Made by a program: the position numbers and the translations under genes
Notes under the pieces: model-generated
What the model saw: only the letters and a program-made list of their open reading frames with translations
Database searches by the model: none
Told to the model about the DNA's origin: nothing
In this document: piece by piece, positions 12-62,016 of the stretch
How positions within the stretch are numbered: the first letter of the stretch is position 1
Layout of the letters: every line of letters starts with the position of its first letter
Source of the DNA: Chloroflexota bacterium
GTDB lineage: Bacteria; Chloroflexota; Chloroflexia; QHBQ01
Direction of reading: 5' to 3'
NCBI GenBank assembly: GCA_025355955.1
Contig: JANXYP010000278.1
Span: forward strand, 284 to 64,283
Length of the DNA: 64,000 nucleotides

Positions 12-185
12 AGGTGCGCGTCACGTTTTTGCATACCCAACCAGGGCGGGCCACCGCCCGCCCCTACGTTTACCCAATGACTTGTTTCACATCCGAGTGA
101 TGTTCATAGTATTGCGATGCCCACCGGGGCGAACGCCATTCGCCCCTACATCAGCTACGAAATTGCAATTTGATGAAATCGCACC
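12..185. repeat. Cluster of REP hairpins within composite inverted-repeat elements
   Basis: cagggcgggccaccgcccgcccctac (42-67) and ggggcgaacgccattcgcccctac; 109-185 recurs inverted at about 1226-1300. Confidence 0.8.
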
Positions 186-58092: not shown

Positions 58093-58280
58093 AATGTTTC
58101 CTCCTTGATTATCGCCGCAAAACTACTTTATTACATAATTTTGGTTATTAGTAGACGGTTAAGTATAAAGCAACATTTGTGCCACACTCGTACCTCCTTT
58201 GTTATCCGCCCCGATTATGTTATAATTCAAGTACAAACCATTCGCCGCCTGCAGTTACCTCGCGGCAAGGAGGAGCAGCA

Positions 58281-59219
58281 TTGGTAGTCAAATACACCCT
58301 TACCCCAGTACATGGCAGCATCAGCTATCTACCTGGCCCGCAGAACATCGGCGTAATTGTCGGCGCAAACGATGGTGATTGCGCCATCGTCGATAGCGGC
58401 CTTACCAAAGAGAACGGCAAGGATATTCTCAAGACCTTGTGGAGTGCGGGTCTCAGTGTGAACACTATTCTCAACACCCATTCGCACGCCGACCACTTCG
58501 GCGGCAACGCCCAAATCGCCGCTTCCTCCAATGGCGGCGCGGTGCGCATCTATGCCCCGCCGGTCGAGGAAGCGTTTATGCGCTACCCTGTGCTGGAACC
58601 AACCGGCCTATTCGCCGGAGCCGCACCGATCAAGCCGCTCTACTCGCACTTTCTCTACGCCCCGCCCTCGCCGATCGACGTGGTGGTGTCGCCCGGCCCA
58701 CTGGAATTGCCTCAACTGGGCATCAGCATCGAGGTGGTAGACCTGAAGGGCCACGCCGCAGGGCAGATGGGCTATCTCGCTGGCGATGTGCTGTTCGTTG
58801 GCGACCTGCTCCTGCCTGCCCAGGTGATTGACAAGTACAAGGTGTTGTACTGCGCGGGCGTAGCCGAGCATCTCGCTTCGCTCGATCGCGCCCTGACCTA
58901 TGCCGATCGGGTTGCCGCTATCGTCCCCGGCCACTCGCCCGCGCTTACCCCTGCTGAGTTCACTGCCCTGGTCGCCATCAACCGCGCCCACTTCCTCGAC
59001 ACGCTAGACTTCATCGTAGCCCACCTGCAAGCGAATGGGCCGCAGAGCAGCGAAGCGGTGCTGCGAGCAGTCTGCGCCCACTACGATTTCAGCGTTACCA
59101 CTGCCGAGGCATACTACCTGCTTCAACCTACGATATACGCGCACCTCAGTTGCCTGCATCAGCAGGGGCGCGTCGGCTGGCAGGTGACAGATAATACGGC
59201 GCTCTGGCACTCACTATGA
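58281..59219 (+). CDS. MBL-fold metallo-hydrolase
   Basis: VDSG, THSHADHFGG, GHAAG, FVGD, PGH; TTG start after GGAGGAG. Confidence 0.9.
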   Translation: MVVKYTLTPVHGSISYLPGPQNIGVIVGANDGDCAIVDSGLTKENGKDILKTLWSAGLSVNTILNTHSHADHFGGNAQIAASSNGGAVRIYAPPVEEAFMRYPVLEPTGLFAGAAPIKPLYSHFLYAPPSPIDVVVSPGPLELPQLGISIEVVDLKGHAAGQMGYLAGDVLFVGDLLLPAQVIDKYKVLYCAGVAEHLASLDRALTYADRVAAIVPGHSPALTPAEFTALVAINRAHFLDTLDFIVAHLQANGPQSSEAVLRAVCAHYDFSVTTAEAYYLLQPTIYAHLSCLHQQGRVGWQVTDNTALWHSL

Positions 59220-60067
59220 CTCTCTGGTTGTTCCTAATTATCGTCTTTGCCACCTCGCTGACCGCCGGGCTGATTGGCGCGTTGGTGGGCATCGGTGGCG
59301 GCATCCTGATCGTGCCGCTGCTGACGATTGCGTTCGGCATTGACATCAAGTACGCAGTGGGCGCGAGCATCGTCTGCACCATCGCCACATCCAGCGGCGC
59401 GGCGGTCGCCTATTTGCGCGACCACATCATCAACCTGCGGGCGGCGATGTTTCTGGAAGTGGCGACTACGATCGGGGCAATCAGCGGCGCATTTCTCACT
59501 GGCATCCTCAATCCCAACTTCCTCTATATCCTTTTCGGTGCGGTGATGTGCGTCTCCGCCGCGTCACAGGTGTTTAAGTTCGGCGAGGAGCTGCCGCAGG
59601 GAGTGCAGAGCGATGCGCTGGCCTTGCGTCTCAAGCTGCCTAGCGAGTATCCCGACAAGAAGCTGGGGCTGGTGCGTTACAACGTTACTCGCGTGCCACT
59701 CGGCTTCGCCATAATGTACGTGGCCGGCGTTCTCTCTGGACTGCTTGGTATCGGCAGTGGCCCGTTCAAGGTGATGGCGATGGACAGCGCGATGCGGATG
59801 CCGATGAAGGTATCCAGCACTACCAGCAACTTTATGATTGGCGTGACCGCCGCCGCCAGCGCCGGGGTCTATCTGGGGCGCGGTGATGTCAACCCGCTGC
59901 TGGTCGCGCCGGTAGCGGTGGGGGTGCTGGGAGGGGCGTTGCTAGGCAGCCGCATCCTGCCGAATATGACCAATCGCGGCATCCGCAAGCTATTCGTGCC
60001 CATCCTGCTGCTAATCGCCGCACAGATGATCCTCAAAGGGTTTGGAGTGAGCTTCTTTGGCGAATGA
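59216..60067 (+). CDS. TauE/SafE sulfite-exporter family permease
   Basis: GALVGIGGGILIVP, SGLLGIGSG, TTSNFMIGVTAAASA. Confidence 0.92.
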   Translation: MTLWLFLIIVFATSLTAGLIGALVGIGGGILIVPLLTIAFGIDIKYAVGASIVCTIATSSGAAVAYLRDHIINLRAAMFLEVATTIGAISGAFLTGILNPNFLYILFGAVMCVSAASQVFKFGEELPQGVQSDALALRLKLPSEYPDKKLGLVRYNVTRVPLGFAIMYVAGVLSGLLGIGSGPFKVMAMDSAMRMPMKVSSTTSNFMIGVTAAASAGVYLGRGDVNPLLVAPVAVGVLGGALLGSRILPNMTNRGIRKLFVPILLLIAAQMILKGFGVSFFGE

Positions 60068-60515
60068 AACTAACGAGCTGAATAAGGTGCAGCCCCCCGC
60101 TCCAATAAATGAGCAGCGTGAGGCGTTCGATCTGGAGATGCTGATCGCCCGCGTGTTGCGTGTGGGCGTGTTTACCAGCGCTGGGCTGCTGGCCTTTGGC
60201 CTGATCCTCTATCTGGTGCAGCAGGCATCACAGGCGGGGCAGACGGGCGATTGGCATACCACCGTGGATTATGTAGGCCAGCACAACCAGCTATATATGC
60301 TGGGCAACCTCATCCCCGCGCTGTTCCGCTTCGAACCACTCGCCTTCGTCGAGGCCGGAGTTATCCTGCTCATCCTCACCCCGATTATGCGCGTGGCCGC
60401 CTCGGTACTGCTCTTCGCCCGCGAACGCGACCTGCTCTACGTTGGTATCACCATAATTGTGCTGGCGGTACTGCTGGTCGGCTGGTTTGCCCATTTAGGG
60501 CGGATTAAAGATTAA
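60057..60515 (+). CDS. DUF1634-like membrane protein
   Basis: IARVLRVGV, GVILLILTPIMRV; usual partner of TauE. Confidence 0.85.
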   Translation: MANETNELNKVQPPAPINEQREAFDLEMLIARVLRVGVFTSAGLLAFGLILYLVQQASQAGQTGDWHTTVDYVGQHNQLYMLGNLIPALFRFEPLAFVEAGVILLILTPIMRVAASVLLFARERDLLYVGITIIVLAVLLVGWFAHLGRIKD

Positions 60516-61016: not shown

Positions 61017-61589
61017 TCAGCTTCCGCCGGTGTAGCTGATCTCCTGCGCCGCCTCGATTATCTCATTTGTGGGCGGGTTGTCAGCGGCATCATGTGCGAT
61101 GTGGACGAAGCGGAGCGTGCCACCGTTGTCAATTACGAACACCCCGCCTAGTTGCGCCATATCCGCATCGGTGCTGCGGGCGATGCCTTGCTGGCGCAGG
61201 CTGGATAGGTTGCGTAGCCAGGTAAGCGGGTTGATTTCGTGCAGCACGCTCAACCGCCCTAGCCCGTAGCGCCGATACCCTTTGCGGCGATTATCCGATA
61301 GGATCGGGTAGGTCAGGTTGTGTTCCGCCTGATAGGCGGTGACCGCCGCATATGGGTGGGGAGTGATTACCACCAGCTTCAGGTTGGCCGCTGCGATGCG
61401 GTCATAATCTTGGCGCAACTGCGCCATCTGCGCCCTGGCATATGGTCAACCAAAGTGACGGATGAACACCAGTAGCAGCGGCTGATCGCCAAGCCAGAGC
61501 GACGATAGCTGTATGTCGTTGCCATTCGCATCCTGCACCGTTGCGTCCGGCGCGGGTTGCCCCACCTTCAACTCACTCTTATCGGCCAT
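61017..61589 (-). CDS. Peroxiredoxin-like (AhpC/TSA-2, SelL-related) selenoprotein candidate, 190 aa with UGA at codon 48
   Basis: Open from an ATG with GGAGG RBS: KVGQPAPD...LVFIRHFG-UGA-PYAR..., continuing in frame into the ORF-track 61427 ORF. Confidence 0.8.
61411..61426 (-). promoter_or_regulatory. Candidate bacterial SECIS hairpin
   Basis: UGGCGC-AGUU-GCGCCA; apical loop 25 nt after the UGA, with G at loop position 2. Confidence 0.65.
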
Positions 61590-61628
61590 CCACATCAACC
61601 TCCGATTTAATTATGTGCTGCCCCATAA

Positions 61629-61850
61629 CTATGCAAATCTGAGGCCACCGAAGGCGGCGAGAATGAACAGCACAATCGCGGCGAACATCACCAGGGCCAG
61701 CAGGGCCAGCGCAGCTAGCATCAGCCGCCACTGCCACTCGCTGACCCCCACCGCCCTCCTGCTCGGTCTGCGCGGACGCTTTACCGTACTGCTGACTGTT
61801 TCATTTGCCGCTGGTTGTGGTCGCTGCTCCTCGATCATCTGCATACCCAT
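61629..61850 (-). CDS. Small basic protein with a C-terminal TM helix
   Basis: GAGGAG RBS; RPRRPSRR then a hydrophobic helix. Confidence 0.6.
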   Translation of the reverse strand: MGMQMIEEQRPQPAANETVSSTVKRPRRPSRRAVGVSEWQWRLMLAALALLALVMFAAIVLFILAAFGGLRFA

Positions 61851-62016
61851 CTCCTCAAGCAATATAGCGCCATTATAACCCATAGCTGCGCCCCTTGCTA
61901 TGCCTTAGCCATTGTGTAAGCAAGCATTGCTGTAGATAAGCGCGAAGTTTATGCAGATTTAATGCGAACACTTCTGCGACGTAGGGTCGCTGCTCGTGAG
62001 CCAGCCTGGGGAATAT

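Follow-up and report, generated by a model that had tools for sequence, protein, structure and literature searches.

Structure of the Locus

The window, by which we mean the whole stretch of 64,000 nucleotides analysed here, carries on its minus strand a 190-codon gene for a redox protein with a single in-frame TGA at codon 48. This codon is followed three residues later by Ala, and we therefore call the motif UxxA, where U is selenocysteine (Sec). The features of the locus are as follows.

61017..61589, minus strand: complete coding sequence of a predicted selenoprotein (190 aa plus a TGA stop), a SelL-related / peroxiredoxin (Prx)-like redox protein with Sec as residue 48
61603-61599, minus strand: Shine-Dalgarno-like GGAGG with a 9-nt spacer to the ATG at 61589; in relatives, GGAGG or AGGAG occupies this site
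61448-61446, minus strand: in-frame UGA, putative Sec codon 48, the sole internal TGA of the frame
61437..61439, minus strand: GCC codon of Ala51, which takes the place of the partner (resolving) Cys in the U/CxxC motif
61411..61426, minus strand: candidate SECIS hairpin UGGCGC-AGUU-GCGCCA, 6 bp, apical loop at +26..+29 after the UGA
61610..61637, minus strand: TTTGCA-16-CATAAT, a sigma-70-like promoter match located shortly upstream of the ribosome-binding site; weak evidence
61629..61883, minus strand: 84-aa tail-anchored membrane ORF, immediately upstream of the gene, with no Pfam match
58179-60515, plus strand: gene cluster, convergent with the selenoprotein gene, that encodes an MBL-fold protein, TauE/SafE and DUF1634

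The initial annotation had described an open minus-strand frame that begins at ATG 61589 behind a GGAGG ribosome-binding site and contains one in-frame TGA. The sequence and its translation confirm this reading, with the start codon at 61589-61587. The terminal stop of the gene is also TGA (61019-61017), and a TAA lies two codons beyond. In the translation, codon 48 stands in the context ...LLLVFIRHFG-U-PYARAQMAQLRQDY..., which gives the motif IRHFG-U-PYAR. The protein has no Cys residue over its full length, and Sec would be its only redox residue. The GCC codon of Ala51 is two base changes apart from TGC. In addition, the ORF track was correctly said to show the gene only in truncated form, since the standard ORF list splits it into an N-terminal piece of 50 aa and a C-terminal one of 136 aa. 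The promoter match agrees with the consensus at 9 of 12 positions, and the scan that found it returned 3 sites against a chance expectation of 1.0.

The 84-aa ORF ends in a C-terminal transmembrane helix (…RAVGVSEWQWRLMLAALALLALVMFAAIVLFILAAFGGLRFA). We found it directly upstream of the gene in all UxxA-clade loci tested, and it was not found in the examined flanks of the UxxC sisters L046, L038, and L032. The downstream genes lie on the opposite strand, convergent to the selenoprotein gene, and encode a DUF3592-like protein, DUF1634, TauE, and the MBL-fold protein. TauE and DUF1634 are neighbours in loci L013 and L014 too, but in L015 and L016 they are not, and the synteny is only partly conserved. 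The neighbour genes are not informative as to the function of the protein.

Family Assignment and Predicted Fold

The peroxiredoxin-like AhpC-TSA / AhpC-TSA_2 identity proposed for the protein is borne out by Pfam, which matched AhpC-TSA (76.7 bits, 1.9e-21), AhpC-TSA_2 (50.4 bits, cutoff 27), and also Redoxin. Furthermore, the protein matched the NCBIfam family NF040769, "SelL-related redox protein", with 133.7 bits against a cutoff of 120, and with 125 bits in a six-frame search of the genome. A second redox residue (Cys or Sec) at +3 is typical though not universal in NF040769, and the window protein has Ala51 at this position. Because this position also varies among relatives (Cys in 123 of 149, another residue in about 17), we file it as a variant of NF040769 and not as a protein outside the family.

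The AlphaFold2 model of the monomer, which was built from 58 aligned sequences, has a mean pLDDT of 78.8 and a pTM of 0.74. It predicts a thioredoxin/Prx fold in which residue 48 stands directly before the helix formed by residues 49-67. The best Foldseek matches of this model were BCP/PrxQ and the 1-Cys Prx proteins AhpE and LsfA (TM ~0.7, E ~1e-11, 17-20% identity). In the sequence-profile search, PRXL2B (9us9) was the only solved structure with a single uninterrupted alignment over the full length (residues 20-181, E = 3.5e-11). The corresponding segment V41-F-I-R-H-F-G-U48 does not show the canonical Prx signature P-x-x-x-T/S-x-x-C(U), as Pro is missing at -7 and Thr/Ser at -3. The window protein is Prx-like rather than a canonical Prx, and because the signature is missing, it is not certain to be a peroxidase. 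Around the active site, R44, H45, G47, and R52 are kept as in catalytic relatives.

Motif Survey in the Same Class

To survey the family, the six-frame translations of 301 genomes from this class were searched with NF040769 (E <= 0.001). Matches were found in 262 genomes at this threshold, and 43 genomes had one above the curated cutoff. Among the matches listed, most of the high-scoring ones contain exactly one in-frame TGA. The family is predicted from these frames to be very often a UxxC selenoprotein in Chloroflexia.

For the motif table, 75 loci were extracted, and the distinct sequences comprised 51 UxxC, 11 CxxC, 8 UxxA, and 2 UxxU forms. Nearly all Sec forms have U-x-x-C (for example, GUPFCR, GULPCR, and GUTVCL), and the Cys forms have C-x-x-C. 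The combination of U-P-Y-A with zero Cys occurred among the 75 loci only in the lineage of the window, namely, in the window itself, two genomes of the same genus, and several metagenome contigs. The two UxxU loci, L086 (G069:C38:32730-33700) and L087 (G028:C22:36310-37280), have two in-frame TGAs in the motif A-U-V-Y-U-A and no Cys. Each of them has a single AGUU hairpin at +26..29 from the first UGA, and this hairpin apparently serves both UGA codons.

The initial annotation had also placed the UGA on the first Cys of the FGCPFC motif, with the resolving Cys replaced by Ala. The homolog alignment agrees on both points. In the Cys homologs (P0010, P0011, and 120 others), the Cys column that aligns to the UGA at codon 48 is invariant, and Ala51 stands at +3 where relatives carry Cys. 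An earlier sample of 120 homologs, all of them CxxC, was too redundant to reveal forms of the CxxA type. Among 149 representatives clustered at 50% identity, there were 123 CxxC, 6 CxxA, 3 CxxG, 3 CxxS, and 2 CxxT sequences and single CxxF, CxxY, and CxxW sequences. The second Cys is thus missing in about 17 of the 143 full-length non-redundant Cys-form relatives (about 12%). By these counts, single-nucleophile variants are a recurrent state of the family. We had considered that the loss of the partner Cys might be confined to Sec forms, with selenium tolerating the loss, but the CxxA/G/S/T/F/Y/W relatives among the Cys forms refute this idea. Variants with SxxC also exist (P0216, P0232, and P0265).

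Conservation of the In-Frame TGA

In the database search, the close relatives of the window protein were present only as C-terminal fragments of 127-136 aa with 55-90% identity. When the DNA of these relatives was inspected, every one of them had a TGA at the homologous codon, and the N-terminal 47-49 codons were conserved in frame. The TGA is retained throughout the UxxA clade down to 62% identity, in independent assemblies. For instance, it is kept at codon 48 in L013-L017, L044, L048, L049, and L088-L090, and further clade members that bear it come from the same genus and from named MAGs. In total, the same TGA was seen in at least seven distinct sequences, including an ENA soil scaffold, a JGI metagenome, and several NCBI MAGs. 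The initial annotation had named reads with TGC or TGT as a refutation, and TGA is what the independent assemblies contain.

Pairwise Nei-Gojobori estimates of dN/dS were 0.11-0.44 for codons 1-47, upstream of the TGA, and 0.09-0.16 downstream of it, with dS of roughly 0.5-1.5. In codons 49-61, dN was 0 and dS was reduced. The purifying selection on the in-frame codons 1-47 indicates that the upstream and downstream parts are translated in the same frame.

The MAG La1_metabat2.069 has two UxxA copies, L088 and L089, on contigs JBBRMT010000370.1 and JBBRMT010000090.1. They are 92% and 84% identical to the window protein, and the coverage of their contigs is 52 and 13, respectively. The two copies are probably two strains that were binned together and not paralogs.

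Selenocysteine Machinery

The source genome is 5.15 Mb in 420 contigs and about 84% complete. We found in it selA (457 bits), tRNA-Sec with a UCA anticodon (identified by ARAGORN and by Rfam RF01852 with 67 bits, cutoff 47), full-length selB (wing-3 domain 72 bits; TIGR00475 342 bits, cutoff 242), and selD (335 bits). Thus, selA, selB, selC, and selD, whose absence would have pointed to a pseudogene, are all present in the genome, on contigs other than that of the window. The selD gene has its own in-frame TGA in the classic ...S-C-A-G-U-A-A-K motif (G000:C28, L011 2434-2436, minus strand) and is itself a selenoprotein gene. Its hairpin is ACCUG-GCG-CAGGU, with 5 bp and a loop at +28..30 after the UGA.

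In addition, selA was present in 20 of the 20 Sec-form genomes queried, and three genomes without selA had only CxxC forms. Taken together, the Sec machinery, the conserved TGA, the purifying selection upstream of it, and the recurrent covarying hairpin lead us to predict that UGA-48 is decoded as selenocysteine.

SECIS Hairpin

In the bSECIS model, a stem-loop lies downstream of the UGA and has a G in its apical loop, and the loop stands about 16-37 nt after the UGA. The window hairpin (5' arm UGGCGC 61426-61421, loop AGUU 61420-61417, 3' arm GCGCCA 61416-61411) falls within this model. Its stem begins 19 nt past the UGA, and the gap between the UGA and the AGUU loop is 25 nt. The AGUU-loop hairpin reported 25 nt downstream is present, and comparison with relatives identifies it as a conserved covarying SECIS of the SelL-related family. 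In a thermodynamic test of the hairpin alone, in this sequence of 59% GC, it was no more stable than shuffled sequences (z = -0.25). Thus, the support for the hairpin is comparative, from relatives, and not energetic.

When the 60 nt after the UGA were folded, the apical loop fell at +26..+29 in nearly every Sec form and was almost always AGUU. The fixed-register test found at least four contiguous pairs around the +26..+29 loop in 37 of 58 distinct Sec sequences, and in most of the other Sec forms, the hairpin recurs with a loop of 3 or 5 nt (GUU, GGUCU). By the same test, the hairpin was found in none of the 11 Cys forms. Covariation was tested on a gap-free alignment of 40 Sec-form sequences with an 8-pair helix. 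In this helix, 80.9% of cells were paired, and six of the eight pairs showed compensatory double changes. The covariation was 0.355, compared with 0.197 in shuffles (0 of 500 reached the observed value), and slid registers gave at most 0.169. RNAfold preferred another fold for the window sequence alone, GGCGCAG...UUGCGCC with its start at +12. We rejected this fold, the covariation of which was 0.128 versus 0.138 in shuffles, with 388 of 500 shuffles as high.

The hairpin lies inside the coding sequence and encodes ...M-A-Q-L-R-Q.... Its loop and part of its stem encode the conserved A-Q-L-R, so that RNA and protein constraints are partly confounded. Despite this overlap, the compensatory changes speak for RNA pairing. 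An Rfam scan of the selenoprotein locus gave no family match. In a genome-wide scan for other in-frame TGAs with the same hairpin geometry, a plausible coding context was found at the window gene only.

Origin of the UxxA Motif

In the maximum-likelihood tree of 72 distinct proteins, the UxxA clade of the window (100/100 support) is nested in UxxC lineages. Next to it stand a sister genus within the same family, which has GUPHCR, and then more UxxC groups. Fixed differences specific to the clade are Tyr50 and a block at residues 117-125. Meanwhile, a second U-x-x-A pair (GULFAR/GUMFAH) was found in another family, formed by L075 (G257:C711:12630-13520) and L078 (G205:C70:6150-7040). This pair is placed far from the window clade, among CxxC and UxxC forms, so that two independent origins of UxxA are required by the tree. 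The motif of the window is thus derived from UxxC ancestors by loss of the Cys, and UxxA arose separately in the second lineage.

L075 and L078 have no AGUU hairpin at +26. Their hairpin instead has a stem of 6 bp and a loop at about +34..39, and the stems of the two loci differ by compensatory changes.

Proposed Mechanism

We consider it quite probable that the locus encodes one 190-residue cytoplasmic SelL-related/Prx-like selenoprotein with hairpin-directed Sec-48, which has lost the partner Cys and would be recycled by an external thiol. SelB and tRNA-Sec would recode UGA-48 to Sec under the direction of the 6-bp AGUU hairpin in the coding sequence. In the Prx/thioredoxin fold, the Sec would stand where the first long helix has its N-terminus, a place taken in relatives by the first residue of the U/C-x-x-C dyad. 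Since the second Cys has become Ala and no Cys is left, the intramolecular selenenylsulfide of the UxxC relatives cannot form. The selenolate may attack an oxidised substrate, such as a peroxide, a disulfide or a sulfenic acid, and the product would be a selenenic acid or a mixed selenenylsulfide. Then, an external thiol, perhaps thioredoxin or a low-molecular-weight thiol, would regenerate the selenol.

Such a single-selenol cycle with an external thiol is likely. External reductants recycle glutathione peroxidase (GPx) and the 1-Cys peroxiredoxins (AhpE, LsfA), and the monothiol glutaredoxins are a further parallel. The view that a Sec without a resolving Cys implies an unusual recycling route was overstated, because the roughly 17 of 143 Cys-form relatives counted above are also single-nucleophile proteins and a UxxS Sec form has been published.

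Alternative Explanations

If the TGA were a true stop, the gene would be dead or would yield only the 136-aa C-terminal fragment. This would agree with the 127-136 aa fragments given by public gene callers, with the use of UGA as the terminator of the gene itself, and with the unexceptional free energy of the hairpin. However, at a dS of about 0.5-1.5, codon 48 is still TGA in all distinct clade members, the 47 upstream codons stay in frame under purifying selection, and the genome has the full Sec machinery. Furthermore, the covarying SECIS is common to dozens of Sec-form relatives and missing in the Cys forms, and according to the model, the first three beta strands would be missing from the 136-aa fragment, as would the active site. 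A nonsense pseudogene is therefore highly improbable. An assembly or sequencing error that hides a TGC or TGT has a minimal probability, since the at least seven distinct sequences with this TGA come from different samples and assemblies, and in each case the SECIS hairpin, missing from Cys forms, comes after the TGA. On comparative evidence, we regard both pseudogene and error as effectively excluded.

For a real selenoprotein, the two subunits of a homodimer might also resolve the oxidised state by forming an intermolecular Sec-Sec diselenide, comparable with typical 2-Cys Prx, in which the partner subunit supplies the second residue. Sec as the sole redox residue would suit this, as would the UxxU relatives L086 and L087, which place two Sec where relatives have the redox dyad, and the frequency of obligate dimers among the Prx-fold proteins matched by Foldseek. 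We nevertheless judge it improbable, because the CxxA/G/S/T Cys-form relatives, 1-Cys Prx, and GPx rely on external reductants. The protein might instead have a non-catalytic role, as a redox sensor or in the handling or trapping of selenium or metal together with the upstream membrane ORF. CxxS/CxxA mutants of thioredoxin-fold proteins trap substrates, and the loss of the resolving residue could have such an effect here; the 84-aa ORF is clade-specific and co-conserved, and the TauE/DUF1634 transporter pair is near the gene in the window, L013, and L014. However, these transporter genes are convergent and not co-oriented, they are absent beside L015 and L016, and R44, H45, G47, and R52 are retained as in catalytic relatives, which makes this role quite improbable. 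A bolder and rather unlikely proposal is that UxxA proteins are a distinct single-selenol enzyme class, evolved convergently at least twice from UxxC, that works with the 84-aa membrane partner (perhaps as a selenol peroxidase or reductase associated with the membrane) and would be recycled through an intermolecular diselenide or a dedicated partner and not through an intramolecular dyad. We prefer the cytoplasmic single-selenol protein with external-thiol recycling.

Comparison with Known Selenoproteins

The lists of prokaryotic selenoproteins include a Prx-like thiol:disulfide oxidoreductase (PF00578; UxxC, UxxU) and an AhpC/TSA family protein (PF13911/cd02970; UxxS), and the UxxS form of PF13911, with MDX2448127.1 / CAB1081847.1 as its published representative, was predicted from Olavius symbiont metagenomes (PMC9312934, PMC13188914). 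In addition, SelL is cited as a Prx-like protein (PMC2398784). The initial description of the gene as a hidden selenoprotein thus overstated its novelty, for the family was already recognised (NCBIfam NF040769; PMC9312934, PMC13188914). By the convention of the field, a different Sec motif defines a subfamily (PMC9312934), and in our literature search, no paper was found that pairs a selenoprotein with UxxA. The UxxA protein is a minor new variant within a known selenoprotein family, from uncultured Chloroflexia, and it does not overturn current understanding.

With the UxxC/UxxU proteins of NF040769, the window protein shares the Sec position, the R-H-x-G-U context, and the distance of the AGUU SECIS, and it lies inside the family tree. 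However, it has U-P-Y-A, no Cys, its own block at residues 117-125, and the clade-specific upstream membrane ORF. PF13911 is shared with the UxxS AhpC/TSA protein (50.4 bits), and both have a single Sec and a small non-redox residue at +3, although this residue is Ala and not Ser in the window protein; this comparison is by description only. SelL of eukaryotes and marine bacteria, which has a UxxU diselenide, belongs to the same Prx-like fold family and likewise has Sec at the first motif position. The window protein has one Sec, so that no intramolecular diselenide is possible, and the UxxU that marks SelL proper is absent.

Among solved structures, AhpE (1xvw), LsfA (7kuu), and BCP/PrxQ (3hjp, 2cx3) match the model of the window protein best. 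Each of these proteins carries one catalytic chalcogen residue where helix alpha-1 starts and depends on external reductants for recycling. The window protein differs from them in its low identity (17-20%), the lack of P-x-x-x-T/S-x-x-C, and the presence of Sec instead of Cys. Meanwhile, the prostamide/prostaglandin F synthase PRXL2B (9us9), a member of AhpC-TSA_2, aligns full-length to the profile of the window family. However, PRXL2B is an animal Cys enzyme with endoperoxides as its substrate class, and it is only a distant relative of the window protein.

A Prx-fold protein with Sec alone offers a compact model for selenium chemistry without a resolving thiol, and its UxxC, UxxU, CxxC, and CxxA relatives can serve as comparators for UxxA enzymology. 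The SECIS of this family is also a natural experiment, in which dozens of lineages keep the AGUU loop at a constant +26 and the Cys forms act as an internal negative control; it is an unusually clean one. In public records, the gene and its close relatives appear as "hypothetical" or "peroxiredoxin" fragments of 127-136 aa. Many Sec forms of Chloroflexia would be split at the UGA by ordinary gene callers in the same way, and correcting this alters the estimate of the selenoproteome of the class. In addition, the representatives P0200, P0219, P0234, P0266, P0271, and P0279 have 127-139 aa and begin at about residue 55-59 of the family, and probably these too are Sec forms that gene callers have cut short.
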